Origin: a virus
Lineage: Duplodnaviria; Caudoviricetes
IMG/VR virus record: IMGVR_UViG_3300017913_001553
Span: 8,027 to 72,026 of that record
Direction: 5' to 3' (one strand)
DNA: 64,000 nt
Below, piece by piece: positions 50,944-63,346 of the stretch (positions within the stretch are counted from its first letter, which is position 1; each line of letters starts with the position of its first letter). A model generated the notes under the pieces. The model saw only the letters and a list, made by a program, of their open reading frames with translations. It was not told the origin of the DNA and searched no databases. Both the position numbers and the translations under genes were made by a program.

Positions 50944-51230
50944 TTATTGAAAAACCATATGATGTTGGTGACGTATTGAGCATCAAATTGTCAAGCGGTG
51001 AAGAAATGGTTTGCCGTTTAGAAAAAAAAGGTGAGAAAACGCTAACAGTTAAGAAACCTATGATGCTTGTTGCCGGACCAGATGGAGCAGGATTGGCACC
51101 ATTTATGTTCACAGTTGATCAAAACGCAAGTTTTAAAATTCAACTAAATAATGTTATCGTGGTAGTGAAAACCGCAAAAGATGCGGCAGACATGTACACC
51201 CAAGCAACAACAGGAATTGTAACAGTATAA
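50940..51230 (+). CDS. small beta protein (possible Sm-like fold)
   Basis: IKLSSGEE...L..PM.L...G...PF pattern. Confidence 0.45.
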   Translation: MIIEKPYDVGDVLSIKLSSGEEMVCRLEKKGEKTLTVKKPMMLVAGPDGAGLAPFMFTVDQNASFKIQLNNVIVVVKTAKDAADMYTQATTGIVTV

Positions 51231-51532
51231 TGCCAGCAGTAAGTCGCAAATCAGACAGTTTAAGTACAGGTCACGGTTGTGATGGATCAACTATTCTTGC
51301 GACACCTGCACAGGGTACTGTTTATGCTAATGGCAGATTGGTTGCCAGAATTACTGATAAAACAATTGTACACGCTATTCCAAGTGGTCCAGCGTGTGTA
51401 CCACACACCGAACAAGTACGTGCGGGTAGTGGAACAGTATATACCGAAGGACTAAAAACAGCACGTATTGGCGATGCCGCAGATGGTGGTAATATGACGA
51501 GTGGTTCGCCAAATGTTTATGCGGGCGGTTAA
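51230..51532 (+). CDS. PAAR spike-tip protein (T4 gp5.4-like)
   Basis: MPAVSR..D...GHGC; LVARITD; GSGTVY..G...ARIGD; GSPNVYAG. Confidence 0.9.
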   Translation: MPAVSRKSDSLSTGHGCDGSTILATPAQGTVYANGRLVARITDKTIVHAIPSGPACVPHTEQVRAGSGTVYTEGLKTARIGDAADGGNMTSGSPNVYAGG

Positions 51533-51966: not shown

Positions 51967-52908
51967 ATGAATTATTTTGAACTACAACCAGAGGAAAACA
52001 CTTTTCTCAATATCGTTGTAGATTTGACACACAAGTGCAATATGGAATGTGCTAACTGCTATATTCCAAATAGAGATATCCCTGATCTAGATAAAGATCG
52101 TTTAGAGGATTTCTTGACACGACTTCCGTTTAGAACATATATTAGATTGATTGGTGCTGAACCAACCATGCGTGATGATTTGCCAGAAATTATTGCCATG
52201 GTTAAGCGGTTAGGGCATCGTCCTAGTCTAACAACAAACGGACTTAAATTGGCACATATGCCGTATACGCAGAGTCTTAAAGATGTTGGATTGCGTCTAA
52301 TGCTTCACAGTATGAATGGGGCAGACGATGATGAAGCATATAAAGTATTAGATATGGGTAAATGGGCAGAAGTAAAAACACGTGCTCTGGATAATATCTT
52401 GGCATGTCGTCTACCTATCAATACAGGGACAATTATCGCACGTGATGTAAATGAGCACTGTGTTCGTCGTCAGGTAGAAGTATTCGAAAAGTATTGTCTA
52501 AAGAATGATATCAACCTAGATACAACAGCACCTTACAATAGAATTACGCCAGTGTTGCGTATGAAAAGTGTCGGCAGTCTTGGTCGTAATATGGGGAGTG
52601 ATTTGGCATTGGGTATTTCTGAATTGGCAGAAATCGCATCAGAAGAATTTAGCATTCCAATTGATGAAATTATCGCAAGTAAAGTTAGCGCAGGTGTTGT
52701 AAAAGCAGGCAACTATGGCGAAGCATTAACTAGTTTAATGTTTCCAGTTCATACAGCAGCAGGTAAACTTTTTATCCGTTTAATTGATTGGAGTGTAAAC
52801 GACGAGGGTGTTATTGATCATGATAACCCTAATCGTGGTAGATTAACACAAGACTTTAAAGTAGCACCATTTTTTGAACACGTTAAGAGGAATGAGTTTG
52901 GGTATTGA
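51967..52908 (+). CDS. radical SAM enzyme (MoaA-like core, no SPASM cysteines)
   Basis: DLTHKCNMECANC, LIGAEPT, LTTNG. Confidence 0.88.
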   Translation: MNYFELQPEENTFLNIVVDLTHKCNMECANCYIPNRDIPDLDKDRLEDFLTRLPFRTYIRLIGAEPTMRDDLPEIIAMVKRLGHRPSLTTNGLKLAHMPYTQSLKDVGLRLMLHSMNGADDDEAYKVLDMGKWAEVKTRALDNILACRLPINTGTIIARDVNEHCVRRQVEVFEKYCLKNDINLDTTAPYNRITPVLRMKSVGSLGRNMGSDLALGISELAEIASEEFSIPIDEIIASKVSAGVVKAGNYGEALTSLMFPVHTAAGKLFIRLIDWSVNDEGVIDHDNPNRGRLTQDFKVAPFFEHVKRNEFGY

Positions 52909-53497
52909 GGTTTATACAGCAACACACAAGGATGCTGATTTTAAAGATTATTGTGCGGCAATAGATAGGTTCCATTTACATTTAGAGAAACATGGAACTA
53001 ATGATAAACTTATTGAAAATTATCGTCCAAAAAGATTACAGTCACGTGATAGTATTGGAATCACTGTTTACTTGGATGATGGAGCATTATTGGGATTTAG
53101 CACAGTAATCACACGTGATATTTTTGGCAATGGGACACGTGTATTAAATCGCTTTGTAAAATCTCCAGTGTATAGATTTGAAAATGAACGCCGTAGAGTT
53201 AGTCAAGAAACAAAAGATATGATACAGCAACAATTAACGATTAGTCGTGAATTAGGGTTTGACTATTCGTTTATGAGCCGTTATACTACTACAAATACAA
53301 GTAATTTTGACCATTATGGAAAACAGTTAACATTTGCTGAGTGGAAGAACGAACCGGGAAGATACTGCGTAACTGAAAACTTTCATCATAAAACAAGTTA
53401 CCAGCATCTTATCTGGACTAGTTTTAATGATAATGTAAAAGAATTACCTATGTATTGGATAAGTGATGGAGAGTTCAATGAACTTGAAGAATTGTAA
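52892..53497 (+). CDS. GNAT-fold acyltransferase-like protein
   Basis: LLGFS...RVLNRFVKSPVYR motif-A-like segment; apparent paralogue of 62789-63346; GAGG RBS. Confidence 0.45.
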   Translation: MSLGIEVYTATHKDADFKDYCAAIDRFHLHLEKHGTNDKLIENYRPKRLQSRDSIGITVYLDDGALLGFSTVITRDIFGNGTRVLNRFVKSPVYRFENERRRVSQETKDMIQQQLTISRELGFDYSFMSRYTTTNTSNFDHYGKQLTFAEWKNEPGRYCVTENFHHKTSYQHLIWTSFNDNVKELPMYWISDGEFNELEEL

Positions 53498-54323
53498 GTT
53501 TGGATATATGATTGAAGATTTAGACTTCAATGACTATGATCCAAAAGAGATATTAAATTTAGTCGGTGATGGACGTTTCGTTGTTATTAGAAACAATGAA
53601 AGGGTATTGCCATCGCAAATGGTAAAGTTATATAAAGAATTAGGTACAGTAGTATCCCAAAATGAAAAAGTAGAAAGTGCAGGAGTAGATGGGTTCCGTG
53701 AGTTGGTTAAGGTTCGTAGTAATGGTATGTTTACTGGTAACGATGATGGTGAGCTTGAATATCATTGCGCAGGGATGAGTCGCACAGGTGGCGAGGATAT
53801 CGTTGCAATGTATATGTATGACAAAGGAATAAGTGGTGGTATAACATATTATACAGATTCACAAACGGCATTTGACGATTTGAGTGATGATGTAAAAGAT
53901 TTGTGTAGAAAAGTAAATAGCAAAATATTAACATACAGCAAGAAAACAAAACTTGAAGGTAGTTACTACAAAAAGATTTTTAATGATGAACAGACCATGA
54001 TGGAATTTCGTGATCCTGATGGTGAAAAAGTTTTTTTCAAGCAAACCCCACGAAAACAATTAGTGATTGAACATCCAATTAATGGAAAAGAGGGATTATA
54101 TTTCCCATGGAGTGTGATTAGAGGATTTACTGGGTTGGACCCACAGGAACAAAAAGATTTATACAGTCATTTAAAACAGCATACACTAAAAGAAAAATAT
54201 GTGTATGCTCATGAATGGCAAAATAACGATATTATATTGAGTGATCAGCATCATAGTTTGCATAGACGTGATGCCTATGAAGGTGATCGTGAACTTTGGA
54301 GAGCAGGAATATGGTTGAATTAG
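53478..54323 (+). CDS. TauD/TfdA-family Fe(II)/2-oxoglutarate enzyme with HxA motif (candidate halogenase)
   Basis: YHCAG at the HxD position; GGITYYTD, HPING, HEWQNNDIILSDQ and LHRR...R motifs. Confidence 0.8.
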   Translation: MNLKNCKFGYMIEDLDFNDYDPKEILNLVGDGRFVVIRNNERVLPSQMVKLYKELGTVVSQNEKVESAGVDGFRELVKVRSNGMFTGNDDGELEYHCAGMSRTGGEDIVAMYMYDKGISGGITYYTDSQTAFDDLSDDVKDLCRKVNSKILTYSKKTKLEGSYYKKIFNDEQTMMEFRDPDGEKVFFKQTPRKQLVIEHPINGKEGLYFPWSVIRGFTGLDPQEQKDLYSHLKQHTLKEKYVYAHEWQNNDIILSDQHHSLHRRDAYEGDRELWRAGIWLN

Positions 54324-55009
54324 AATACGGTGAAATTGATAATATCAATATTCGTGAACAATTATTAGAGCATGGATTATTAGTAATCCGCAATGCTGAT
54401 ATCTCTATGGATGAATTTAAAGAACGTGTGACATCTATGGGTAAACCACTGGTTACAACAAAGCATGTGTTGGATGATGATCGTGTTGTTCAAGAATTAA
54501 GTGAAAATGGTTTGTTTAGTAACAATGATGTGGATTGGCACAATGATTGGAGTTACGGTAGAGGTAATTATTTTGGAACTGCCTTGCGAAATGTAGAAGG
54601 TGGTGAACTAAGTGAAACACATTTTTGTGATATGACAAAAATTCCACAAAGTATTATGCGTATGTACGAGGGCAAGGTAGGAAAATATTATCCACCGCAA
54701 TCATTACATGATGTCTGCTTTACTGAAAAACAGTTACGAATTTTGGAAAAGCAAAAAGTAGAGCGTCCAATAGTTATGGATCATCCAATTACTGGAACGC
54801 CTCTTGTATTCTGTAGTCCTGGAACAATACAAAATGATGATATTGACTTGATGCCAATTATTCTTTATGCAGATGTAGATGCGTATAATTACAAACACAA
54901 ATGGAAACCAAATGATATTCTTATTTGGGACAATTATAGAATGATGCACAGACGTATGGCATTTGAAGGACACCGACTATTGTGGAGAATTCAATTCACA
55001 TTAGAATAA
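54311..55009 (+). CDS. TauD/TfdA-family Fe(II)/2-oxoglutarate dioxygenase (canonical HxD...H)
   Basis: WHND, THF.D, HPITG, HKWKPNDILIWDN and MHRR...R motifs. Confidence 0.88.
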   Translation: MVELEYGEIDNINIREQLLEHGLLVIRNADISMDEFKERVTSMGKPLVTTKHVLDDDRVVQELSENGLFSNNDVDWHNDWSYGRGNYFGTALRNVEGGELSETHFCDMTKIPQSIMRMYEGKVGKYYPPQSLHDVCFTEKQLRILEKQKVERPIVMDHPITGTPLVFCSPGTIQNDDIDLMPIILYADVDAYNYKHKWKPNDILIWDNYRMMHRRMAFEGHRLLWRIQFTLE

Positions 55010-55043
55010 AGTAAAAATTATTTAAAAAAGTAATAATTTATAC

Positions 55044-55072
55044 TTGACAACTCTATCTTTACAGTATAGTAT
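55044..55072 (+). promoter_or_regulatory. sigma70-like promoter
   Basis: TTGACA, 17-nt spacer, TAGTAT. Confidence 0.65.
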
Positions 55073-55102
55073 GATCTTATATGATTAACATAGGAGATTA
55101 AT

Positions 55103-55390
55103 ATGAGAGCAACAACATGCTCTGATGGAGTAAAACGAATTAACGCTAAAATTGAAGTTCCCATGACTCATGTGGATGTGAGTGATTACGTATTATCAGC
55201 AGTGTCTGGTGAGGTAATCACTCTTGAAAGTGTGCAACAATTAAACAAGCGACAACTACTACAAGTTGCAAAAGAAGAAGTATATAATTATGGTGTTGCT
55301 GTTCCGCGTCAACGTGCAAAAGAAGTTGATACTAAAACAAACATTATTATACGAAACTATGTAAAAAACATGTTTCCAGAGATCGATTAA
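55103..55390 (+). CDS. hypothetical protein
   Basis: GGAG RBS; clean ORF. Confidence 0.6.
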   Translation: MRATTCSDGVKRINAKIEVPMTHVDVSDYVLSAVSGEVITLESVQQLNKRQLLQVAKEEVYNYGVAVPRQRAKEVDTKTNIIIRNYVKNMFPEID

Positions 55391-55401
55391 GGAGAATAGA
55401 T

Positions 55402-55932
55402 ATGTTTAAGAAATTCGCAATCACAGCAACTGCTATTATGATCACGTCAGCGGCAGCAGCACAATCAACTGCTTATGCTACAATTACAAAAGTAGTCCCT
55501 AATTACACAAACGGTGGAACAACTCAACAAGCATATCAGAGTTGTGAAATTGTTAGTGTGCCAGTTACTCGCACAGAAACTGTTCGTGAAGGCGGCAGTT
55601 CGGGTGAGGGAGCATTGGCAGGAATGATTATCGGTGGTATTCTTGGTAAAGGAGTATCTGGTAACGATAAAGGTGCGGCAGCAGGTGCTGTAATTGGTGG
55701 CATTATTGGTGCTGATAAAGGCGGTAATGGTCGTACAGTTGAGCGCAATGTGACACGATATGAAGATCGTGAAGTGTGTACGACAAAATATCGTACAGTC
55801 CATGGATCACGCCAGATCAAAAATTATAAGATTACCTATGAATGGGCTGGTGTAACTGGAACAAGTTATACTTATAATTCATATAATGTAGGTGATCAGA
55901 TTCCGGTAACTGTTTCTATTAACGCAAAGTAA
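55402..55932 (+). CDS. secreted glycine-zipper (2TM) protein, YcfJ-like
   Basis: Signal peptide; GALAGMIIGGILG...GAAAGAVIGGIIG. Confidence 0.8.
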   Translation: MFKKFAITATAIMITSAAAAQSTAYATITKVVPNYTNGGTTQQAYQSCEIVSVPVTRTETVREGGSSGEGALAGMIIGGILGKGVSGNDKGAAAGAVIGGIIGADKGGNGRTVERNVTRYEDREVCTTKYRTVHGSRQIKNYKITYEWAGVTGTSYTYNSYNVGDQIPVTVSINAK

Positions 55933-55941
55933 GAGGTTATT

Positions 55942-57375
55942 ATGTATCGCTCATTATTAGTTGGCATTGCTCTAACTACACTTGCCGCATGTCAAGCAAC
56001 AACTGCTAGTGATGTAACAATTGGTGCATCTTTTCAATCAACACCCCCATCGCCTGTGATAGTTGGTCAGTTAGAACCTCATCGCAAAAGTAAGCATGTT
56101 GATTATAGCGAAAAGCATAACTTTACCTATCAAAAAGGACGCTTCTTTGTTGATGGAATGAACACCTATAGACAGAAATACCTGTCGTTGTATGGTCCAT
56201 ATCGTGAGCGATATGAAGGCAACTATAATTTCGTCACCGCGATGAACTACATTTGGATACCGCGTGATGGATATGGAAGAACACGCTATCCATGTTTGGA
56301 TATCATTTACACGCCAGATTACACAATGACTATCAAGTTTGTTCAAACCCATGGTGACAGATTTGAAAATTCTGAACACTTTGATCGACATATGTATAGA
56401 AAATCAATGAATTGGTGTACAGATAAGGTGAAACGTCTTGTTCATGAGGACGTAATACGCGGTGAACGCCGAGGCGATGCCATAAAATATTTCTTTGAAA
56501 CTTTAATGCCGCGCTTTTTGAAAAATGACAGTTGGTTGAAACTTCCATTCGATCAATCGCAACCGGGCGAGGATTTCATCCCAGAACAAGGGGCGATTGA
56601 AGCGTTGCTATACACATACATTTATTTTAGCGATTGGTATGGAACAAGTGACGAACTAGACGAACTATTTGTAAGTTACTTCCGCAAGTATGAACGCACA
56701 CGCCACAAACAGATCAAAAGTGATCGTAACAAACATTTCATAACCAAATGCCCACGCAATATCTGGAATGCTCGTAGTAGTAGTCCAACCTCGACAGGAG
56801 ATGCTTTCTTGGCATGTAAGCAAGAGTTTTGGACTATGATGTATGCTATGATGGCGGTGCGCTTTCAAGATAACGATATGCTGAACGAAGCACTATTTTT
56901 CTACAAGCACAACGCGAAGTACACATTTGAAGAAGGTGCTACCATTGAGGTCACACGTGGATACAAAGGTCCAGGATATGCGATGATGGCAGCAGAGTTC
57001 TTTGATCAAGGTGCTTGGGTGATCGAAGCATTTACCGATGCTGAAGTTTATACGATTGAGGGTGGTGGCAAGTATAACAACACTGTTGGAAAGATGATTG
57101 AAAGCAGTATCGATGCTTTTACCAACCCACCTAAATACTACAAATACGCAAAGCAGTATAATCTCGGCACTAGACCTCACACAGACCCTGATCTTCCAAC
57201 AATTCCACACAACAATTACCGCATGGTTGGAGCGTTCTTAGATGGATCAAAGTCAGGAAAGTGGGATGAATATCTCAATAGCGTGGGTGATCGGGGATAC
57301 ACGATACGCTTGGCAATTGACCCTCTTTTGATGTCTCGAGCGTACAATTTTTCGCCAAGTTATCGCACCGATTAG
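55942..57375 (+). CDS. lipoprotein with possible alginate-lyase-like alpha/alpha fold
   Basis: Lipobox LTTLAAC; C-terminal EGATIEVTRG....Y resembles the PL5 G...E..R....Y motif. Confidence 0.45.
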   Translation: MYRSLLVGIALTTLAACQATTASDVTIGASFQSTPPSPVIVGQLEPHRKSKHVDYSEKHNFTYQKGRFFVDGMNTYRQKYLSLYGPYRERYEGNYNFVTAMNYIWIPRDGYGRTRYPCLDIIYTPDYTMTIKFVQTHGDRFENSEHFDRHMYRKSMNWCTDKVKRLVHEDVIRGERRGDAIKYFFETLMPRFLKNDSWLKLPFDQSQPGEDFIPEQGAIEALLYTYIYFSDWYGTSDELDELFVSYFRKYERTRHKQIKSDRNKHFITKCPRNIWNARSSSPTSTGDAFLACKQEFWTMMYAMMAVRFQDNDMLNEALFFYKHNAKYTFEEGATIEVTRGYKGPGYAMMAAEFFDQGAWVIEAFTDAEVYTIEGGGKYNNTVGKMIESSIDAFTNPPKYYKYAKQYNLGTRPHTDPDLPTIPHNNYRMVGAFLDGSKSGKWDEYLNSVGDRGYTIRLAIDPLLMSRAYNFSPSYRTD

Positions 57376-57513
57376 AATAGAATAAGAGTAAATACAACTA
57401 GCGTGTCGTTGATCCGTGGCACGGTGACTAAGGACTTTTTGATAACGTCATACAATCTTATTTAAGAAATAAGGGTCTATCAGCAGATTCCAACCTGTAA
57501 GGCTAACGGATTG

Positions 57514-57549
57514 CCAATCTTCTATAAATATAATTATATGGGGGATTGG
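57514..57549 (+). promoter_or_regulatory. late promoter inside an RBS-sequestering hairpin
   Basis: TATAAATA at 57523-57530; 13-bp stem 57514-57526 / 57537-57549 covers the SD of the ATG at 57552. Confidence 0.65.
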
Positions 57550-57551
57550 AT

Positions 57552-58586
57552 ATGACTAGAAAAAGCATAAGAAAAGATATTCCACAAAAAAACTTTGAAC
57601 GTGTAATTCATATCGTAGACGAAGATACAGGATTAGATGCAATTATAGCAGTTCACAATACTAAACTAGGTCCTGCTATTGGTGGAATTAGACTTTATAA
57701 TTATACTTCATTTGAAGATCAATTAAATGATGCTCTTAGGTTAGCAAAAGGCATGACCTTTAAAAACGCCGCAGCGGGTATACATCATGGTGGTGCTAAA
57801 ACAGCGGTAAACGCTTCTAAAATTAAAGATAGAAAAGAAGCATACAGATTACTTGGCAAAATGGTCAATCTATTAGATGGTTCTTATATTTGCGCAGGCG
57901 ATGTAGGGACTACAAAAGATGATCTAATGGATGTAAATTTTGGTACAAGTTATGTAGCAGGTATTACATTGGATAGTAGTTTACCAACTGCCCTAGGGAC
58001 CAAAACGAGTATTGAGGCATTATTACATTTTAATAAACGTCAGATTTCAGATACAAGTTTTACTATACAAGGATTGGGAAAAGTTGGATGGAAACTGGCA
58101 ATGATGCTTATTGAAGGTGGCGGTGATGTTAGGGCATATGATCCATATTTTGATAAAATCTACAAAGAGTTTGAGCACCAAGTTGGCGATGGTGTAATTA
58201 CAGATTTAAGTGCCAGTGCTATTTTTACAGATGATAGTGATATGTATGTTCCTTGTGCTTTGGGTGGAGTTTTAAATATGAAAACTCTTAATACAATGAC
58301 ACAGAAACTAGTTTGTGGATCGGCAAATAATCAGTTTGAAAATGATTCGAGTGTAGCAATTGCCAAACATATGGGAATTCAATATGTTCCTGATTTTGTG
58401 GCAAATTGTGGTGGAGTTGTGGCAGTTGCATACGACTTTAATAAAAGAGATTATACAAAAAAATTAACAACTGAACTGTATGAAACTGTTTTAGAAATCT
58501 TAGAAGAAAGTAAAAAAACAGGATTTGCTCCGCAGATGATCGCTGAGAGTATTGCTAATCAGAGGATTAACAACGAGTATAGGTAA
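57552..58586 (+). CDS. Glu/Leu/Phe/Val amino-acid dehydrogenase (LeuDH-like)
   Basis: GPAIGGIR, LAKGMTFKNAAAG..GGAK, GDVGT, QGLGKVG, PCALG, GSANNQ and PDF.AN.GGV motifs. Confidence 0.92.
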   Translation: MTRKSIRKDIPQKNFERVIHIVDEDTGLDAIIAVHNTKLGPAIGGIRLYNYTSFEDQLNDALRLAKGMTFKNAAAGIHHGGAKTAVNASKIKDRKEAYRLLGKMVNLLDGSYICAGDVGTTKDDLMDVNFGTSYVAGITLDSSLPTALGTKTSIEALLHFNKRQISDTSFTIQGLGKVGWKLAMMLIEGGGDVRAYDPYFDKIYKEFEHQVGDGVITDLSASAIFTDDSDMYVPCALGGVLNMKTLNTMTQKLVCGSANNQFENDSSVAIAKHMGIQYVPDFVANCGGVVAVAYDFNKRDYTKKLTTELYETVLEILEESKKTGFAPQMIAESIANQRINNEYR

Positions 58587-60427
58587 TGACAAAAACCAAT
58601 GTCCTTATAGGAAGTTTCCAACCTAAAAGAATGAATTCAACAAGTAATTTCAACTGGCTGCCACACGCTGCCGGTTGTCTTATTTCATATGCACTGAAAT
58701 CAGATATTGTTAGGGAAAATATAAAATTTCTTGATCCTATTTTCAGATGTGATGATTTTTCGGTATATGATGATATTCTTAAGCAAACTGATATACTCTG
58801 TTTGACAAATTATGTTTGGAATCAAAAATATAATGACAACTTTTCAATACATTACAAAGCATTGAATCCAAATGGTATTGTTGTTTATGGTGGTGCGAGT
58901 GTTCCAGAAAATGCAGGTATTGCCCAAGAATATGCTCACAATAGACCGCAGGTTGATTTGTTCTTTGTTGGTCCTGGTGAAACTAATTTCACAAAATTTT
59001 TAGAAGATACAGATTCTTTTAATAGAAAAGAAACATATGGTGCGTTCAGTCGTGGATGGTCTAATGTGACAGTCAATAAAGATTTGTATAGTATTGGGTC
59101 TGATGATATCCCTCTTCCCTATGTTGATGGAATTTTTGATAATATTATTTCTAATTGTCCAGACAAATCAGTTGCCATTGCCTTTGAAACAACACGCGGA
59201 TGTCCATACAAATGTGCATTCTGTGATTGGGGTGGATTGAGTAGAAGTATTGTTACCAAATTCAATATAGATAAAATCAAACAAGCAGTTGATTGGATTT
59301 ATGAGAATGCTAACAAGATAACTCTTGTTGATTTTATTGATGCTAATCTTGGTATGGCAAGGCGTGATGTTGAGATACTTAAATATTTTATAGAGTGTAG
59401 TAAAAAATACAACAATCATGTTTTCATAAGTTTAAATGGATACGTAAAGAATGGCAGTCCTTATCTAAAAGAAACAATTGAATTAGTAGAACAATTGAAT
59501 ATCGCTGCCAAAGAATTTATGGATAGTGGTAGTGGAACAACTGGAAATGTTAAAAATAATAAAAGTATTACTAAGTCAGTAACAATGAGTTTCCAAAGCC
59601 ACAATAGCGAAGTGTTGGAAAAGATTGATCGTGGTAACATTGACAATAAGAAATTATTTCCTCTTGTTGAGGAGTTAAAAGAAAATGATATCATCATACG
59701 AAGCGAGATGATGATTGGATTGCCAGGAGATACCCCAGATGGTTACATCAAAAACTTAGAAGAAGATTACAGATTGGGTATTGGGTATATGAGAGCATAT
59801 CCAACCATAATTATTCCAAACACACCAATGTATGACCCAGAATACAGAAAGAAGCATGGATTAAAATTTAAAAAGGTTTTGCTACCATTTGATATTAATA
59901 TTTCTGATAATGAGGTATATAGACAAAATCCATTTGCTGAAACAACTTGTGACTTTGATGATGATTCATTGTTTGAGGAAATAGAATTGATGTATGAATG
60001 TGATACATTTACAAATGAACAGTTAGTTGAGATTTATAAATATTGGTGGTGGTATCATAACTTCTACAATTTAGAAGCATTGCGTGATGAAATCGCAGAA
60101 GCAGTATATCACGGTAGAAGTATTGAAACCCAAATAAGGACATTTTTTAACTTTATTGATCAGGGAAAAATGCCTGTATTGGAAAAAATACTTGACTTTT
60201 ATTTAAATACAGTTAGACTAGTATTTAAACCAGAGCCAATTACAAAATTAACGCACGTTTATCATAATAACTTTTTGCAATTGGGTATTAGAACAAATGA
60301 ACCATTATTCTTCGTAGAGCACAAAGATAAAATAGAAAAAGAACTGAGACAGATATATCCTACAGTAAACACTGACAAATGGATCAATGACCGTGGATTC
60401 TTTATGGATTATAGTATTCTTGATTAG
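58586..60427 (+). CDS. cobalamin-binding radical SAM enzyme
   Basis: N-terminal B12-binding-type region (YVWN, VYGG, D.F.VGPGE); ETTRGCPYKCAFCDWG; MIGLPGDT. Confidence 0.88.
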   Translation: MTKTNVLIGSFQPKRMNSTSNFNWLPHAAGCLISYALKSDIVRENIKFLDPIFRCDDFSVYDDILKQTDILCLTNYVWNQKYNDNFSIHYKALNPNGIVVYGGASVPENAGIAQEYAHNRPQVDLFFVGPGETNFTKFLEDTDSFNRKETYGAFSRGWSNVTVNKDLYSIGSDDIPLPYVDGIFDNIISNCPDKSVAIAFETTRGCPYKCAFCDWGGLSRSIVTKFNIDKIKQAVDWIYENANKITLVDFIDANLGMARRDVEILKYFIECSKKYNNHVFISLNGYVKNGSPYLKETIELVEQLNIAAKEFMDSGSGTTGNVKNNKSITKSVTMSFQSHNSEVLEKIDRGNIDNKKLFPLVEELKENDIIIRSEMMIGLPGDTPDGYIKNLEEDYRLGIGYMRAYPTIIIPNTPMYDPEYRKKHGLKFKKVLLPFDINISDNEVYRQNPFAETTCDFDDDSLFEEIELMYECDTFTNEQLVEIYKYWWWYHNFYNLEALRDEIAEAVYHGRSIETQIRTFFNFIDQGKMPVLEKILDFYLNTVRLVFKPEPITKLTHVYHNNFLQLGIRTNEPLFFVEHKDKIEKELRQIYPTVNTDKWINDRGFFMDYSILD

Positions 60428-60454
60428 AATATAAATTAATGATATAGTAATAAA

Positions 60455-61171
60455 ATGATTGGATTTAGTGAAGAAAAAAGTAAGCAGAAATATTCTGCTT
60501 TAATCGGACATGTTGTTTTGGTAGCACATACAATGCTATTGGGGTGGGTATATTTGCTATGGATCGTTCCTATCAGTCTGTTAGTATATCACCTTGGACA
60601 TAGTGTTTTTATGCATAGGCATTTAAGTCATGGGCAATTTAATTTTAGTCATAGAGTTCAGTATGTTCTTCATTATGTTTCTATAATTTGTAATATGGGG
60701 AAAATTCCAGGATATGTAGCAATCCACAAAGAGCATCACGTTTCTAGTGGAAGTGATCATGATCCGCATGAATTTAGAAAGCATGGGTTTTGGAATATAT
60801 TTTTCAGTAATTGGCACATTGAAACAAAACCAATCCACAAGAGATGGTTGGTTCAGAGTTTCAAACTTACACCATATGTTAAATTTTTCACAAACAATCA
60901 TTATAAAATTCTTTGGATACTTCTGCCTATTTTTGGTGGGATAACTGCTATGTCATGGTGGTGGAAGCAATTCAGTGTGATTGTGGTCCACTTAGATATT
61001 GGTGATCGTAGTCGTAGACGTGGTGTTGATACAAGCACAAATAATATATGGTTATGGCCTATTATGTGGGGGGATGAAAATCATACTGAACATCACCTGA
61101 ACGCATCGCGTGAACGTCTGTGTCGTATTGATCTTCAGTATTTTATGGGAAAGATATTAGAACGTGTCTGA
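60455..61171 (+). CDS. membrane fatty-acid desaturase (delta-9-like), short
   Basis: His boxes HRHLSH, HKEHH and HTEHH; DPH motif. Confidence 0.88.
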   Translation: MIGFSEEKSKQKYSALIGHVVLVAHTMLLGWVYLLWIVPISLLVYHLGHSVFMHRHLSHGQFNFSHRVQYVLHYVSIICNMGKIPGYVAIHKEHHVSSGSDHDPHEFRKHGFWNIFFSNWHIETKPIHKRWLVQSFKLTPYVKFFTNNHYKILWILLPIFGGITAMSWWWKQFSVIVVHLDIGDRSRRRGVDTSTNNIWLWPIMWGDENHTEHHLNASRERLCRIDLQYFMGKILERV

Positions 61172-61856
61172 TCTAACAAAGATACATACATTTGCTTTTC
61201 TTTCGCATTTGTTGACATTGGTTTATCTTTTTTATTTTCCAATATTAACTTTATTTGCGTTGGTGATTAGTTTACTTTGGTTTCATATTGGACACGGTGT
61301 GTTTATTCACAGATATTTTACACATCGTCATTTTGAGTTTAGTAAACTTGGTATCTTATTGGGGCATTTGTTTTACATTGGCACAAACATGGGACCTAGT
61401 ATAATGTGGGCAGGAATGCATATAAAACATCATACCAATAGTGGAACGGATGATGATCCCCATGAGTGGAGAAATGTTGGATGGATCAATGCTATCTTTA
61501 GCAATTACACTGATAGTTTTAGTGTTGACAAGCGTGTGGCAGTAAGGATGAGCAAGGAACCATATGTTAAGTTCTTTACAAAATATCATTATAAAATTCT
61601 AGCATTATATCTTATTCCACTTGCTCCAATTATAGCAATGAGTTTTTGGTGGAAGCAATTCACCACTATTGTGGTTCATACTGACTATGGTGATACTTCT
61701 GGTAGACGTGGAACTGATACAAGTGTAAATATTAATTGGTTACATTGGTTAATGTGGGGTGATGAAAAGCATACAGATCATCATAATAACCCAAGCAAAA
61801 AAGATATGGGGAATGACTATCTTTATAAACTAGGAAAGTTATGGGAGAAAATATGA
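61164..61856 (+). CDS. membrane fatty-acid desaturase (delta-9-like), short, second copy
   Basis: His boxes HRYFTH, HIKHH and HTDHH; GTG start overlapping the first copy. Confidence 0.88.
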   Translation: MSDLTKIHTFAFLSHLLTLVYLFYFPILTLFALVISLLWFHIGHGVFIHRYFTHRHFEFSKLGILLGHLFYIGTNMGPSIMWAGMHIKHHTNSGTDDDPHEWRNVGWINAIFSNYTDSFSVDKRVAVRMSKEPYVKFFTKYHYKILALYLIPLAPIIAMSFWWKQFTTIVVHTDYGDTSGRRGTDTSVNINWLHWLMWGDEKHTDHHNNPSKKDMGNDYLYKLGKLWEKI

Positions 61857-62542
61857 CAAAACCAATTATGCTTATAACTGGAACTTCCAGAGGTATTGGA
61901 AGTGCGGTCTATAATTATTTTAAAAATGATTATCAAGTGGTGGGTGTAAGCAGAACTGGAAATCCAGAATATAAAGGTGATCTAACTGATATTGAGTTTC
62001 GTAAAAAGATTATCAGTGAAGTTGATCCAGATGTTTTTGTAAATAACGCTGGAATATTAGATCATAATTTTATGAATGTAATAGAAACAAATTTGGTAGC
62101 ATCTGGGCATTTACTTACGGAATTTTATAAAAAAATGAAAGATGGTAGTATTATTATCAATATGTCTAGTTCATGTGCTGTTATGCATGGCACACCTAGT
62201 ATGACTAATTGGAGACTGTCATATCACACTGCTAAAAGTGCTCTTAAAAAATTAAGTGAAAATTTAAGTGAGCAACGAGTACGAAATATAAGAGTTACTA
62301 GTTTGGAACCTGCTCACGTTGATACTCTAATGACATGTGGTGGTCGAGGTGAATTATGGAACTTTTCAGAAGAAGAATATCAACAGGCAGATATAGATAA
62401 ATTCTTACCTATGTCACCAGAATATATTGCACAGACTATAGAATGGATTTTAGATCAACCTAAGTGGGTTCAAATAAGTAGTATGAGAATACTAAATTTA
62501 CATAATAGGGAACTGGCAGATATGCCAGTGAATACAAAATGA
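61853..62542 (+). CDS. short-chain dehydrogenase/reductase
   Basis: TGTSRGIG, NNAG, MSS and YHTAK (YxxxK) motifs. Confidence 0.92.
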   Translation: MTKPIMLITGTSRGIGSAVYNYFKNDYQVVGVSRTGNPEYKGDLTDIEFRKKIISEVDPDVFVNNAGILDHNFMNVIETNLVASGHLLTEFYKKMKDGSIIINMSSSCAVMHGTPSMTNWRLSYHTAKSALKKLSENLSEQRVRNIRVTSLEPAHVDTLMTCGGRGELWNFSEEEYQQADIDKFLPMSPEYIAQTIEWILDQPKWVQISSMRILNLHNRELADMPVNTK

Positions 62543-62802
62543 CAACATTGATTATTAAAACAACACGTGAACCAGGATGGTTAGATGATTACCGTGAAGG
62601 TCTGGTCAGAAGTTTCATGAGTGATGAAGATGTTGCTTCATTAGAGTCTGCAATCCCAAAAGATAAAAAGAAATATCTTGACGGTGATTTTATGGTTATT
62701 GAAGCAAGTTTTGATCAACATAGAGATGCATTAAGATGTTTGAGTAAAATTAGAAAGTTACAAATTCCAGGATTTACGGTGACTGTGGATGTTGTTAAGT
62801 GA
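62539..62802 (+). CDS. small hypothetical protein
   Basis: ATGA-coupled within the operon; no ACP DSL motif. Confidence 0.55.
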   Translation: MTTLIIKTTREPGWLDDYREGLVRSFMSDEDVASLESAIPKDKKKYLDGDFMVIEASFDQHRDALRCLSKIRKLQIPGFTVTVDVVK

Positions 62803-63346
62803 AATTTATGACAAACCCAATCAAGAACTATTTGAGTATTGGGCATATCAGCAATATTGGTGCGAAGATCATAACAAGGATTGGTTTGACGTATTATTAG
62901 TAAACCCAAAATATGAAAAGTATTGGATACTTCGTGATGATGATACAAAAGATATCGCTGCCTTTAGTTGTATTCAGTTTGTAGAATTCCCAGAATATAC
63001 TTGTCGCATAGGGACGAGAACGTTTATTGATCCAGAATATAGAAATAAATCTTCCAGTAGGGAAACGCAGAAAATTACTCCAATGTTTAGGATGTTAACT
63101 GAACAATACGATTGGGTGAAGGAAAATACTGACAAGGAAAATTGTTTTAGTAGTATGGAAAAAGGTCGCACTGCTGCTATGAGAGCAAGTGCAAGGAAGT
63201 TTAAAAAGTTAAATGGCGTTGATGCAGAAGTGTTGCCCTATAGATACAAAATGTTTAACAACACAACCCATCCAAGTTGTTACCAACAGGTATTATTGTT
63301 TCCAATAAAATCAAAAAAATTTGAATTAAATTGGATTATTTCGTAA
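62789..63346 (+). CDS. GNAT-fold acyltransferase-like protein
   Basis: IAAFS...RIGTRTFIDPEYR motif-A-like segment; apparent paralogue of 52892-53497. Confidence 0.55.
   Translation: MLLSEIYDKPNQELFEYWAYQQYWCEDHNKDWFDVLLVNPKYEKYWILRDDDTKDIAAFSCIQFVEFPEYTCRIGTRTFIDPEYRNKSSSRETQKITPMFRMLTEQYDWVKENTDKENCFSSMEKGRTAAMRASARKFKKLNGVDAEVLPYRYKMFNNTTHPSCYQQVLLFPIKSKKFELNWIIS

Follow-up and report, generated by a model that had tools for sequence, protein, structure and literature searches.

Two neighbouring gene sets of an uncultured, giant marine phage, nearest to the PA5oct-type jumbo phages, are proposed here to form a functionally linked tailoring system, because the homologous genes remain together, if in shuffled order, on many divergent contigs of marine phages. 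Judged from the sequences, the genes of these sets very likely work together. Both sets hold a radical SAM enzyme and a GNAT-fold acyltransferase, and the cassette type to which they belong also includes iron oxygenases. More tentatively, the sets may be two cassettes of one recurring, phage-specific type which, late in infection, turn host precursors into an acyl-amide or lipid-like compound and modify it oxidatively. This reading is plausible, if somewhat short of an even chance, and within it we infer every substrate, the order of the steps and the destination of the product.

The window, that is, the whole stretch of 64,000 nucleotides analysed, belongs to a record which represents some 20% of a genome and whose end is 654 nt past the cluster. 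Profile matches and motifs located every gene family named in the original prediction between positions 51967 and 63346, on the + strand and in the predicted order (Table 1). The catalytic motifs of the enzymes are intact, and the coordinates bear out the predicted start and stop codon overlaps between neighbouring genes inside each module. The cluster lies downstream of ribonucleotide reductase, glutaredoxin, PAAR and tRNA genes and 46 kb away from a tail-fibre gene. An identical gene arrangement was assembled independently in two ENA samples, and seawater runs of two studies contain at least 85% of the sampled words.

Table 1. Features of the two modules and the spacer between them, in window coordinates.
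Feature	Position	Strand	Characteristics
Module A	51967..55009	+	radical SAM, GNAT-like, TauD (H-x-A), TauD (H-x-D)
Radical SAM enzyme, module A gene 1	51967..52908	+	313 aa; Pfam Radical_SAM 44 bits; C24xxxC28xxC31
g207, GNAT-like protein, module A gene 2	52874..53497	+	distant paralogue of viral GNAT family
TauD-family Fe/2OG enzyme, module A gene 3	53463..54323	+	TauD 88 bits; H101-C-A103
Canonical TauD-family Fe/2OG oxygenase, module A gene 4	54296..55009	+	TauD 85 bits; H82-N-D84
Spacer, three genes (i95, i176, i477)	55103..57375	+	variable between relatives
TATAAATA, T4-type late-promoter motif	57523..57530	+	22 nt upstream of dehydrogenase ATG
Module B	57552..63346	+	dehydrogenase, radical SAM, two desaturases, SDR, 87-aa protein, GNAT
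Leu/Phe/Val-type amino-acid dehydrogenase, module B gene 1	57552..58586	+	ELFV_dehydrog_N and ELFV_dehydrog
TokK/CysS/KedN5-like radical SAM, module B gene 2	58586..60427	+	613 aa; Radical_SAM 35.5 bits
des1, short membrane desaturase, module B gene 3	60455..61171	+	238 aa; His boxes HRHLSH, HKEHH, HTEHH
des2, short membrane desaturase, module B gene 4	61164..61856	+	230 aa; FA_desaturase 37.8 bits (cut-off 29.7)
Classical SDR, module B gene 5	61841..62542	+	adh_short 59.5 bits; TGTSRGIG; Y128xxxK132
s87, conserved protein, module B gene 6	62539..62802	+	87 aa; homologues between des2 and GNAT
g185, GNAT-fold acyltransferase (predicted), module B gene 7	62789..63346	+	AF2 model; common element of cassettes

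Module B opens with a dehydrogenase which, among solved proteins, is best matched by leucine dehydrogenases (E 2e-61), with K73 and K85 in MTFKN...GGAK and the motif GLGKVG, and whose predicted activity would be the NAD(P)-dependent interconversion of oxo acids and amino acids. Its stop codon overlaps the start of a radical SAM gene, the product of which carries the cluster C206xxxC210xxC213 and aligns among solved proteins with TokK (5e-38, residues 21-271) and CysS (6e-27). The original prediction had called this enzyme a B12 radical SAM; the radical SAM assignment holds, whereas the B12 part follows by homology only, with the Pfam B12-binding model matching neither this protein nor any other part of the record, and the enzyme is best described as a putative cobalamin-dependent C-methyltransferase. 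TokK and ThnK of the carbapenems and CysS of the cystobactamids share the CxxxCxxC motif with it, and the TokK/CysS alignment spans the N-terminal domain and the radical SAM core; however, identity is low, the NCBIfam KedN5 subfamily score (135 bits) is far below the cut-off of 700, and the phage cluster lacks the beta-lactam and PABA pathway genes of those systems. More than 200 metagenomic relatives of the enzyme were found, some of them with PF02310, and none by tblastn among GenBank phages. Beside or near its homologues in loci L006-9 and L033/34 stands a class III aminotransferase, which is a non-orthologous replacement of the amination enzyme. Bacterial loci with relatives of this enzyme are devoid of any other cluster gene in 76 of 78 cases, and the remaining two look like mis-binned phage contigs.

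The following two genes encode desaturases which are 44% identical to each other, both with N-terminal hydrophobic or transmembrane segments; des2 has the His boxes HRYFTH, HIKHH and HTDHH, and the profile of the family matches SCD1 at 7e-8. Both are predicted to be of the delta-9 (SCD/DesC) type, and their His boxes, membrane segments and match to SCD1 point to acyl-chain chemistry. They are approximately 100 residues shorter than SCD1, and their electron donor is not encoded. The SDR, which also matches the Epimerase family, has a 79% identical orthologue in L146, where it sits downstream of the GNAT gene in a permuted order. The small protein s87, without a match in Pfam or NCBIfam, has 49-51% identical homologues between des2 and GNAT in L019-21 and L146; it occurs only where the des1-des2 pair does and is missing from L016/17, which are without desaturases. 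The coupling of a membrane desaturase to an acyl-transfer protein is likewise found in thiotemplated cassettes of the JamABC type, but the phage record differs from these in having no detectable PP-binding/ACP domain or AMP-binding ligase.

The final gene of module B, g185, is the common element of these cassettes. Its AF2 model (pLDDT 89, pTM 0.87) indicates a GNAT fold, with SpeG, EctA and RimI as best Foldseek matches, phosphinothricin acetyltransferase as a further one, and a Z of 11.6 to many N-acetyltransferases (VIA). RimI, Naa80, NatA and NatB are among the best structural neighbours, such that the nearest solved structures are short-chain amine and protein N-(terminal) acetyltransferases, not long-chain N-acyl synthases. 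None of the 90 metagenomic clusters of the family has a Pfam match, 12 of 61 members match Acetyltransf_1 weakly, the usual R/Q-x-x-G-x-G/A CoA motif is missing, and OlsB-type Pfam models do not match the family. The g207 protein of module A, with no match among Pfam families, aligns over its full length with the profile of the 61-sequence GNAT family (hhalign, profile A3: 76% probability, E 2e-5, 168 columns), which supports g207 and g185 being paralogues, with g207 the distant one. Its reading frame opens at a TTG at 52874, the ATG at 52892 being the likelier start, and in L068 and L069 homologues of about 30% identity have genes for a desaturase and a cupin hydroxylase as neighbours. The family of g185 and g207 is unannotated, previously unnamed and known only from viral or metagenomic sequence.

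In module A, the radical SAM enzyme has a single CxxxCxxC cluster, no SPASM or twitch cysteines, and a core whose best solved relatives are GDGT-MAS/Tes (1e-12), PqqE and MoaA. In the first of the two TauD enzymes, the H101-C-A103 motif, aligned with H-T-D of RdpA (6d1o), has an alanine (codon at 53769-53771) in place of the aspartate of H-x-D, and the same H-x-A motif is found in L026, a 97% relative. The distal histidine and arginine are kept, and H267, R269, R276 and R280 are invariant in the alignment with its paralogue. An orthologue of the H-x-D enzyme (61% identical) adjoins an orthologue of the H-x-A enzyme in L017. The halogenation suggested by the original prediction is tentative, as the H-x-A motif is the only evidence for it and every solved sequence relative of this enzyme is a hydroxylase or dioxygenase.

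Between the modules, the three-gene insert described earlier is present, but the early promoter assigned to it is a 10/12 sigma-70-like match only, and such matches are not enriched in the region (62, against 58 +/- 9 in shuffles). Two of the spacer products, a secreted glycine-zipper protein (i176; Gly-zipper Pfam and YiaD-type NCBIfam matches) and a predicted lipoprotein (i477; lipobox LAAC), are probably envelope-targeted proteins rather than enzymes; signal peptide and lipobox were read off the sequence. Two different genes replace the spacer in L017, and homologues of i176 recur close to cassettes at 12 loci. Late expression of module B is suggested by the motif TATAAATA just before the dehydrogenase start, since it precedes the module in the relatives L016, L019 and L026 as well; six of the seven + strand copies in the window stand 20-45 nt upstream of gene starts, and the total count in the window (8) is no higher than in shuffles.

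A search for synteny and co-occurrence revealed that homologues are linked, not scattered, which upholds the earlier view of a linked tailoring system as opposed to isolated auxiliary genes. Among 38 distinct sequences of GNAT-seeded loci, the gene immediately upstream encodes a desaturase in 20, and the one immediately downstream a cupin hydroxylase in 22; in desaturase-seeded loci from 35 viral lineages, a GNAT gene is present within 2.5 kb in 25 and a hydroxylase in 27. The adjacency of desaturase and GNAT, often gene-to-gene, is the most conserved feature of the family. Close relatives carry dehydrogenase-B12 rSAM-GNAT or desaturase-desaturase-s87-GNAT as separate units, as in L016/17 (TauD-TauD...ELFV-B12rSAM-GNAT, without desaturases), L019-21 (des-des-s87-GNAT and a TauD, without ELFV or B12rSAM) and L146 (des-des-s87-GNAT-SDR-...-TauD), and in G001:C52 a 45-47% identical homologue of the module A radical SAM is followed by a second radical SAM, a GNAT and a cupin hydroxylase. 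The partners were kept through several independent rearrangements, down to 22-30% protein identity, and the combination is confined to phage-like contigs. In many relatives, the cassette stands among glycosyltransferases, sulfotransferases, a carbamoyltransferase and tail-fibre genes.

In the proposed pathway, the dehydrogenase would interconvert an amino acid and the corresponding 2-oxo acid, branched-chain or aromatic, and the TokK/CysS-like enzyme would methylate this building block at least once on an unactivated carbon. An acyl group would then be transferred by g185 from host acyl-CoA or acyl-ACP to an amine, and the two desaturases, the SDR and s87 would unsaturate or oxidize the acyl chain at the membrane. 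Module A would act as a second cassette of the same logic, contributing another acyl transfer and a hydroxylation or, possibly, a halogenation. Since i176 and i477 bear signals and related cassettes occur in cell-surface and tail-fibre contexts, the product may be destined for the envelope of the infected cell or the virion. The record has no detectable ACP, acyl-CoA ligase or OlsB-type acyltransferase, and five related viral records, one of them 94% complete and 359 kb long, have no detectable ACP either; in agreement with the original prediction, the pathway must therefore use host substrates. For its N-acyl amino acid or lipid product the outcome is mixed, as the desaturases point to an acyl chain, while the structures nearest to g185 speak against it. 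A comparable logic operates in ornithine-lipid synthesis, in which a membrane amide lipid is acted on by the N-acyltransferase OlsB and the hydroxylases OlsC/LpxO (Asp_Arg_Hydrox family). Similarly, a GNAT, an Asp_Arg_Hydrox-like enzyme and an acyl desaturase are combined in the wider phage cassette, but an OlsB-type match and an OlsA-type second acyltransferase are lacking, and the window has TauD enzymes in place of Asp_Arg_Hydrox.

The neighbourhood of the relatives fits the modification of a glycan or a virion protein at least equally well. The enzymes could tailor a surface glycan (LPS, capsule or virion glycan) by editing an amino-sugar or other sugar-linked group. C-methylation of the sugar would then fall to the B12 radical SAM, ketoreduction or epimerization to the SDR, N-acetylation to the GNAT, and the amination step to the dehydrogenase or aminotransferase. 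The operon of the B12 radical SAM homologue in L006-9 (GT25, GT8, sulfotransferases, a methyltransferase and the class III aminotransferase), the genes next to the cassette in other relatives (carbamoyltransferase, UDP-glucose dehydrogenase-like), the Epimerase match of the SDR and the link of such islands to host O-chain alteration (PMC7029224) are all consistent with this; yet neither glycosyltransferases nor nucleotide-sugar families of Pfam were found among the cluster genes, the substrates of ELFV dehydrogenases are alpha-amino acids and not sugars, and membrane delta-9 desaturases, the most constant neighbour of the GNAT, have no known sugar role. This explanation is unlikely.

Improbable, too, is the modification of a phage structural protein (tail fibre, collagen-like) or a ribosomal peptide by the GNAT, the 2OG/cupin hydroxylases and the radical SAMs. 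It derives from a proposal of Iyer et al. on bacterial beta-hydroxylase/sulfotransferase/acetyltransferase operons linked to tail-collar proteins, with tail-collar or collagen-like substrates (PMC2938197), and is in line with related cassettes between tail-fibre genes in Mosig and beside an Mtd_N/collagen-trimer protein in L037, with the tail-fibre-linked host recognition cluster of pelagimyophages (PMC7029224), with the late-promoter motif, with the protein acetyltransferases among the neighbours of g185, and with peptide-modifying relatives of Asp_Arg_Hydrox enzymes and TokK-class methylases. However, the genes tightly coupled to the GNAT (leucine-type dehydrogenase, SDR, integral-membrane delta-9 desaturases) encode enzymes of small molecules or lipids, the cluster is distant from the tail-fibre gene, and a search for a small precursor-like ORF with a leader or core pattern revealed none.

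Still less probable is that the dehydrogenase, B12 radical SAM and GNAT produce a soluble N-acetylated, C-methylated branched-chain amino acid (antimetabolite, signal or osmolyte) next to desaturases of independent function in membrane fluidity. The self-contained trio of L016/17, the similarity of g185 to SpeG, EctA and phosphinothricin acetyltransferase and the existence of lone phage desaturases (a stearoyl-CoA desaturase is mentioned in PMC7029224) would fit, but the desaturase-GNAT adjacency persists in phages without ELFV and B12rSAM, and s87, which co-varies with the desaturase pair, overlaps the GNAT start. A mosaic of unrelated auxiliary genes gathered in a hypervariable region, without a common pathway, is very improbable and largely refuted by the linkage statistics: the region differs between relatives, spacer genes are exchanged and hypervariable islands are typical of marine T4-like phages (PMC7029224), but translational coupling inside each module and the retention of partners across rearrangements argue against it.

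Cassettes of this kind have precedents, and the original statement that no described phage pathway has this composition was too strong. The cultured Pelagibacter phage Mosig EXVC030M (MT647606) has adjoining genes annotated as Asp_Arg_Hydrox, FA_desaturase, TauD, N-acetyltransferase and MoaA-like radical SAM, its N-acetyltransferase having no match to the GNAT family profile. Radical SAM cassettes or tandem dioxygenase arrays were noted in marine phages before (PMC7029224, PMC2938197), neither study assigning them a function. The host recognition cluster or hypervariable islands of pelagimyophages and cyanomyophages (Zaragoza-Solas et al., 2020; PMC7029224) share radical SAM, TauD, FA_desaturase and N-acetyltransferase blocks with the cluster and contain Asp_Arg_Hydrox, aminotransferase and methyltransferase genes in addition; the desaturase-GNAT-hydroxylase trio of the wider GNAT family is found in such marine T4-like islands. 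The cluster in the window, in contrast, lies away from tail fibres, lacks glycosyltransferase and Asp_Arg_Hydrox genes, and adds the leucine-type dehydrogenase and the TokK-like radical SAM. Clustered Fe/2OG oxygenases with acetyltransferases, aminotransferases and radical SAMs, phage-borne or operonic, were proposed either to produce secondary metabolites, some of them halogenated, or to modify proteins of the tail-collar or collagen-like kind (Iyer, Abhiman, de Souza and Aravind, 2010; PMC2938197); halogenation was tied there to tryptophan-halogenase-type enzymes, unlike the H-x-A TauD of the window, and that work describes neither the viral GNAT family and the way it is coupled to membrane desaturases nor the dehydrogenase-B12 rSAM-GNAT unit. 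Reshuffled versions of both gene sets recur in many marine phages.

The genes named in the original prediction are all present at window 51967-63346, all on the + strand, and their coordinates confirm that they overlap or abut inside each of the two modules (see the table). In addition, these genes keep company in other genomes. Among viral contigs seeded with the GNAT-like protein g185 of module B, which comprised 38 distinct GNAT sequences, many of them just 22-30% identical to that of the window, a desaturase homologue lies directly upstream of the GNAT in 20 of the 38 and an Asp_Arg_Hydrox-like cupin directly downstream in 22. A desaturase-seeded search returned 35 lineages; 25 of them have the GNAT within 2.5 kb and 27 have the hydroxylase, accompanied by TauD (10/35), an SDR-like protein (10/35) and the B12 radical SAM enzyme (5/35). 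Relatives of the B12 radical SAM enzyme were also located in bacterial genome bins; of these 78 loci only 2 contain another cluster gene, and both of these exceptional MAG contigs are probably mis-binned phage contigs. Since the partners are kept in viral loci and are missing from 76 of the 78 bacterial ones, the homologues are linked, and not independently scattered.

Features of the window, of related cassettes and of two contigs filed under bacterial bins
Feature	Location	Strand	Description
rSAM1 (radical SAM, module A)	window 51967-52908	+	one CxxxCxxC; without auxiliary-cluster cysteines
g207 (GNAT-like, module A)	window 52874-53497	+	distant paralogue of the g185 family
TauD_A (module A)	window 53463-54323	+	TauD family, H-C-A in iron-ligand motif
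Second TauD (module A)	window 54296-55009	+	TauD family, H-N-D
i176 (spacer gene)		+	signal peptide and glycine zipper
i477 (spacer gene)		+	lipoprotein signal
Leu/Phe/Val (ELFV) dehydrogenase (module B)	window 57552-58586	+	both ELFV domains above cut-off
B12 rSAM (module B)	window 58586-60427	+	best relatives TokK, CysS, KedN5 subfamily
des1 (module B)	window 60455-61171	+	delta-9 (SCD/DesC) desaturase type
des2 (module B)	window 61164-61856	+	delta-9 (SCD/DesC) desaturase type
SDR (module B)	window 61841-62542	+	classical SDR
g185 (GNAT, module B)	window 62789-63346	+	GNAT fold by predicted structure; no Pfam match
TATAAATA (T4-type late-promoter motif)	window 13737, 17049, 21181, 33777, 42611, 57523	+	upstream of gene starts
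Related cassette	L016/17		TauD-TauD, two other genes, dehydrogenase-B12 rSAM-GNAT; without desaturases
Related cassette	L019-21		hydroxylase-des-des-s87-GNAT, then TauD; without dehydrogenase or B12 rSAM
Related cassette	L146		des-des-s87-GNAT-SDR, then TauD; permuted order
Related cassette	G001:C52		rSAM1 homologue-rSAM-GNAT-hydroxylase; mirrors module A
Desaturase arrays without GNAT	L157, L171, L172, L174, L175		adjoining TauD and SDR-like genes
H-x-N TauD proteins	L024:12386-13168; L031:10961-11788; L019:4762-5613; homologues in L035, L046, L057, L059		W-H-S-N-G-N or W-H-A-N
MAG contig (L068)	JAUHVL010000001, 349.5 kb		filed under 'bacterium 1_bin.12'; phage-type cassettes
MAG contig (L069/L209)	CAXREJ010000052, 46.5 kb		filed under a Bdellovibrionales bin; phage-type cassettes

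The layouts of closer relatives show that the modules are separable units arranged around one GNAT. Phages further removed have a class III aminotransferase near the B12 radical SAM gene where the window has the dehydrogenase; it would be a non-orthologous replacement for the oxo/amine step of the dehydrogenase. Desaturase genes can also form tandem arrays, with seven paralogues in one viral contig (L157:4190-9600) and three in others. In two further loci (L022, L024), relatives of the B12 enzyme belong to radical SAM gene arrays, six to eight members long, which are accompanied by nitroreductase, Asp_Arg_Hydrox, TauD and desaturase genes, and the array of L022 adjoins thymidylate synthase and DHFR. 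Downstream of the GNAT in L016, a 69%-identical relative (L016:5170-13137), a SPASM radical SAM gene and four ORFs of 57, 55, 36 and 65 aa are followed by another radical SAM gene, a cupin and a DAO-type flavoenzyme, a layout that looks like peptide maturation. Among the conserved small proteins of the cassettes, no small ORF resembling the leader and core of a precursor peptide (RiPP or proteusin-like) was recognised. No informative name came from NCBIfam for any of the cupin hydroxylases, fam52, fam23, s87, i477 or i95.

The source record in IMG/VR is linear, 72 kb long and judged about 20% complete. The window also encodes a tail fibre, a tail sheath, the large terminase, a UvsX-like recombinase and helicases. 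The tail sheath shares 41% identity with the sheaths of PA5oct-type jumbo phages, and from this likeness and the gene content we infer that a large T4-like myovirus is the source of the window. Both modules are preceded, on their 5' side, by genes for ribonucleotide reductase alpha and beta, a glutaredoxin, a PAAR protein and three tRNAs. The PAAR-motif protein (100 aa, window 51230-51532; Pfam PAAR_motif 30 bits), which resembles a gp5.4-like spike tip, is placed far from the tail genes, between small genes of no assigned function and the tRNA cluster. The cluster also occurs outside this assembly: seawater metagenome runs from two studies contain 85% or more of the words sampled from 57552-63346, no RNA run being among the public runs listed, and two independently assembled ENA contigs have the same arrangement, with the GNAT 97% identical at the protein level. 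The record stops 654 nt past the g185 gene, and in near-identical contigs the next 3 kb hold only small ORFs and a 212-aa protein without assigned function before they end as well. The record (window end, 64000) and the near-identical contigs L026 and L027, which come from other assemblies, all end 0.65-3.2 kb downstream of the GNAT, which may mark a genome end or an assembly-breaking repeat.

The protein at the centre of these cassettes, g185, is assigned to its family by structure prediction. An AlphaFold2 model built from a 61-sequence alignment reached a pLDDT of 89 (57 for an earlier model from 3 sequences) and resembles GNATs with a VIA Z of 11.6 over 146 aligned residues (rmsd 3.4); the Atlas comparison gave a TM of 0.62-0.75. 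Foldseek gave 250 PDB matches at E<=0.001, all GNATs among the matches listed, and the structural neighbours include SpeG, EctA, RimI and N-terminal acetyltransferases; g185 is thus predicted to have the GNAT alpha/beta fold. At the sequence level the family is remote, with Acetyltransf_1 matched by only 12 of its 61 members, at a best E of 0.021 that falls short of significance, and the R/Q-x-x-G-x-G/A CoA motif is absent from the family, which has Y-R-x-x-S/T at that place and no G-x-G. It forms at least 90 metagenomic clusters at 90% identity, none of them annotated. A scan of bacterial genomes for the GNAT found none, which is weak evidence since the scan was pattern-based, and tblastn of a distant family member gave no match among GenBank phages. 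The GNAT-like protein of module A, g207, aligns with the g185 family over nearly its whole length in hhalign (75.8% probability, E 2.3e-5, 168 aligned columns); pairwise BLASTP between the two gave no significant match.

Two better-known acyltransferase classes were compared with this family. LuxI enzymes contain an R-L-L-P-T-T motif, and C-Y-R-V-L-T-R-T in the GNAT resembles it; the idea of a LuxI-type or long-chain N-acyl synthase was dropped, as it has no Pfam support and such enzymes are absent from the top structural lists. Unlike the ornithine-lipid N-acyltransferase OlsB, the 61 GNAT members have no OlsB-type Pfam among their matches, and the OlsC-type hydroxylase family PF05118 is absent from the window's record, yet adjoins the GNAT in 22 of the 38 relatives.

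The two desaturases are membrane proteins of 230-238 aa, 44% identical to each other, in which the His boxes HxxxxH, HxxHH and HxxHH are present, their histidines being invariant in 25 sequences. They match SCD1 at 7e-8, over the first ~175 profile positions only, and in Pfam des2 stands above the cut-off and des1 below reporting. The full-length delta-9 architecture of four transmembrane helices and about 300 or more residues is not reached by either protein: the only membrane segments are an N-terminal hydrophobic hairpin and, in des2 only, one later hydrophobic segment. A complex prediction of des2 with the GNAT, both given as alignments, scored 0.00 and counts neither way. The small protein s87 was considered as an electron carrier and rejected, having one Cys only, no heme motif and no family match.

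At the head of module B, the ELFV domains of the dehydrogenase score 69.6 and 54.4 bits, both catalytic lysines (MTFK73N, GGAK85) and the GxGxxG motif (G176LGKVG) are kept, and the nearest relatives are leucine dehydrogenases (E 2e-61); a pattern scan of IMG/VR for close relatives found none. The adjoining radical SAM enzyme carries the cluster motif C206-P-Y-K-C210-A-F-C213, invariant in 21 homologues, and aligns through residues 21-271 with TokK 19-269 and through residues 25-303 with the KedN5 model, its KedN5 subfamily score of 134.9 bits falling below the curated cut-off of 700. TokK and CysS are cobalamin-dependent sequential methylases, to which the window's enzyme is likened by sequence. 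Some of its homologues carry the cobalamin domain PF02310; a search of the record at E<=1 gave no match to this domain, so the "B12" label is drawn from homology. A tblastn search with this enzyme found no match among GenBank phages.

In module A, the rSAM1 core comes closest, among solved proteins, to the lipid-coupling enzyme GDGT-MAS, followed by PqqE and MoaA. The original prediction had raised halogenation and noted H-x-A in TauD_A, and the motif itself is real: in alignments, H101-C-A103 takes the place of H-T-D in RdpA and of H-N-D in the paralogue, so that the carboxylate ligand is replaced by Ala, while the distal His (H267) and the 2OG-binding R276/R280 are kept, invariant in a four-sequence alignment. 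It is also the sole argument for halogenation, against which stand the solved sequence relatives, 12 of 12 being hydroxylases or dioxygenases (RdpA, TfdA, CarC, TauD). Many phage TauD-family proteins of these cassettes have H-x-N in place of the iron-binding Asp, and the conservation of this motif across contigs suggests that it is probably functional rather than decayed.

The spacer between the modules is aptly called an insert, since a different pair of genes occupies the same place in one relative. Its three genes probably do not encode enzymes; two of them, for a secreted glycine-zipper protein and a lipoprotein, lie at window 55402-57375. Homologues of i176 recur near cassettes at 12 loci (L003, L004, L007, L008, L012, L013 and others), which hints at an envelope role. 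The early promoter attributed to the spacer did not hold up, being only a 10/12 consensus match of a kind as common in shuffled sequence, and sigma-70-like promoters and terminators in the region were not above shuffled counts. The late-promoter motif TATAAATA is found at 57523, 22 nt 5' of the dehydrogenase ATG, and is kept ahead of the module in the relatives L016, L019 and L026. In the window it is not enriched overall (8 copies vs 9 expected); of its 7 + strand copies, 6 lie 20-45 nt upstream of gene starts, the terminase gene among them, and the phage probably uses T4-type late promoters. By analogy with T4 biology, this position and conservation suggest that module B is probably a late transcription unit.

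What the cassettes make can be approached from their most constant element, the pairing of a membrane desaturase with the GNAT, which suggests that the cassettes act on an acyl chain, with the GNAT either transferring it or making the substrate. Gene overlap and the arrays of three to seven desaturase paralogues in some phages point in the same direction. The dehydrogenase and the TokK-class methylase, coupled start to stop, would provide a route to a C-methylated branched amino or oxo acid, and an amine acceptor of similar size would suit the likeness of the GNAT to small-amine acetyltransferases; module A would follow this logic as a further cassette. The favoured, if tentative, reading is that cassettes sharing this GNAT use host precursors to build an acyl-amide or lipid and oxidise it. 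Against it weigh the lack of a carrier protein or ligase, a GNAT without the usual CoA motif whose nearest structures use acetyl donors, the truncated desaturases, and the many related cassettes that lie among glycosyltransferases, sulfotransferases, a carbamoyltransferase and tail-fibre genes. For these reasons two alternatives remain serious rivals: modification of a virion protein, following the proposal of Iyer et al. for related bacterial operons, and alteration of a surface glycan, which has been suggested for the islands of pelagimyophages, where a hypervariable host recognition cluster includes radical-SAM gene cassettes (PMC7029224).

The stated lack of an ACP or acyl-CoA ligase was borne out by PF00550 and PF00501, neither of which has a match in the record, which covers about 20% of the genome; PF00550 also has none in five related viral records. 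In relatives, the small protein f27 (76-90 aa) sits upstream of an SDR-like-desaturase-GNAT(-hydroxylase) cassette, and its homologues (L008:17622-17885, alignment A7) share an invariant G-I-G-E-H-S-D that recalls a carrier-protein serine. As an ACP it was rejected: searching the PDB with a profile brought up no carrier protein, and PF00550 is without a match in those records.

Comparable gene content has been annotated in the Pelagibacter phage Mosig EXVC030M (Kyanoviridae), which has Asp_Arg_Hydrox, FA_desaturase, aminotransferase, TauD and methylase genes beside its tail fibres and, in the same setting, an N-acetyltransferase and three MoaA-like radical SAM genes; this N-acetyltransferase does not match the GNAT family profile. 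Cyanophages carry tandem dioxygenase arrays, for which secondary metabolites were speculated (PMC2938197). Particular to the window are the dehydrogenase-TokK-like rSAM-GNAT unit, the presence of two neighbouring cassettes with paralogous GNATs, the H-x-A TauD and the placement of the cluster away from the tail fibres.

The most far-reaching reading combines all of these elements into one pathway of marine jumbo/T4-like phages with a viral-only GNAT as its core, around which a head module (dehydrogenase or aminotransferase with an iterative B12 radical SAM methylase) and a tail module (desaturase arrays, SDR, hydroxylases) would be interchangeable. Its products would be a new class of N-acyl amides, methyl-branched, unsaturated and possibly halogenated, placed in the envelope of the infected cell or on the virion and changing surface properties, and the H-x-A enzyme would be the first halogenase of the TauD family proper. 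We regard this combination as unlikely in its entirety; if true, the altered surface could exclude other phages or aid adsorption.

The cassettes are common in ocean phages: the GNAT forms 90 clusters, the radical SAM enzyme has more than 200 relatives, and seawater metagenomes from several studies contain them. In the bacterial genomes that were examined, their enzymes did not occur together. Natural variants in which the same acyltransferase is accompanied by the head module alone or by the tail module alone offer an experimental handle, and the pair of leucine dehydrogenase and TokK-like methylase is a candidate source of unusual branched amino acids. If a lipid or acyl-amide is indeed made, phages would rewrite the chemistry of the marine bacterial envelope or of their own particles, with consequences for host range, for superinfection exclusion and for the marine pools of lipids and organohalogens.
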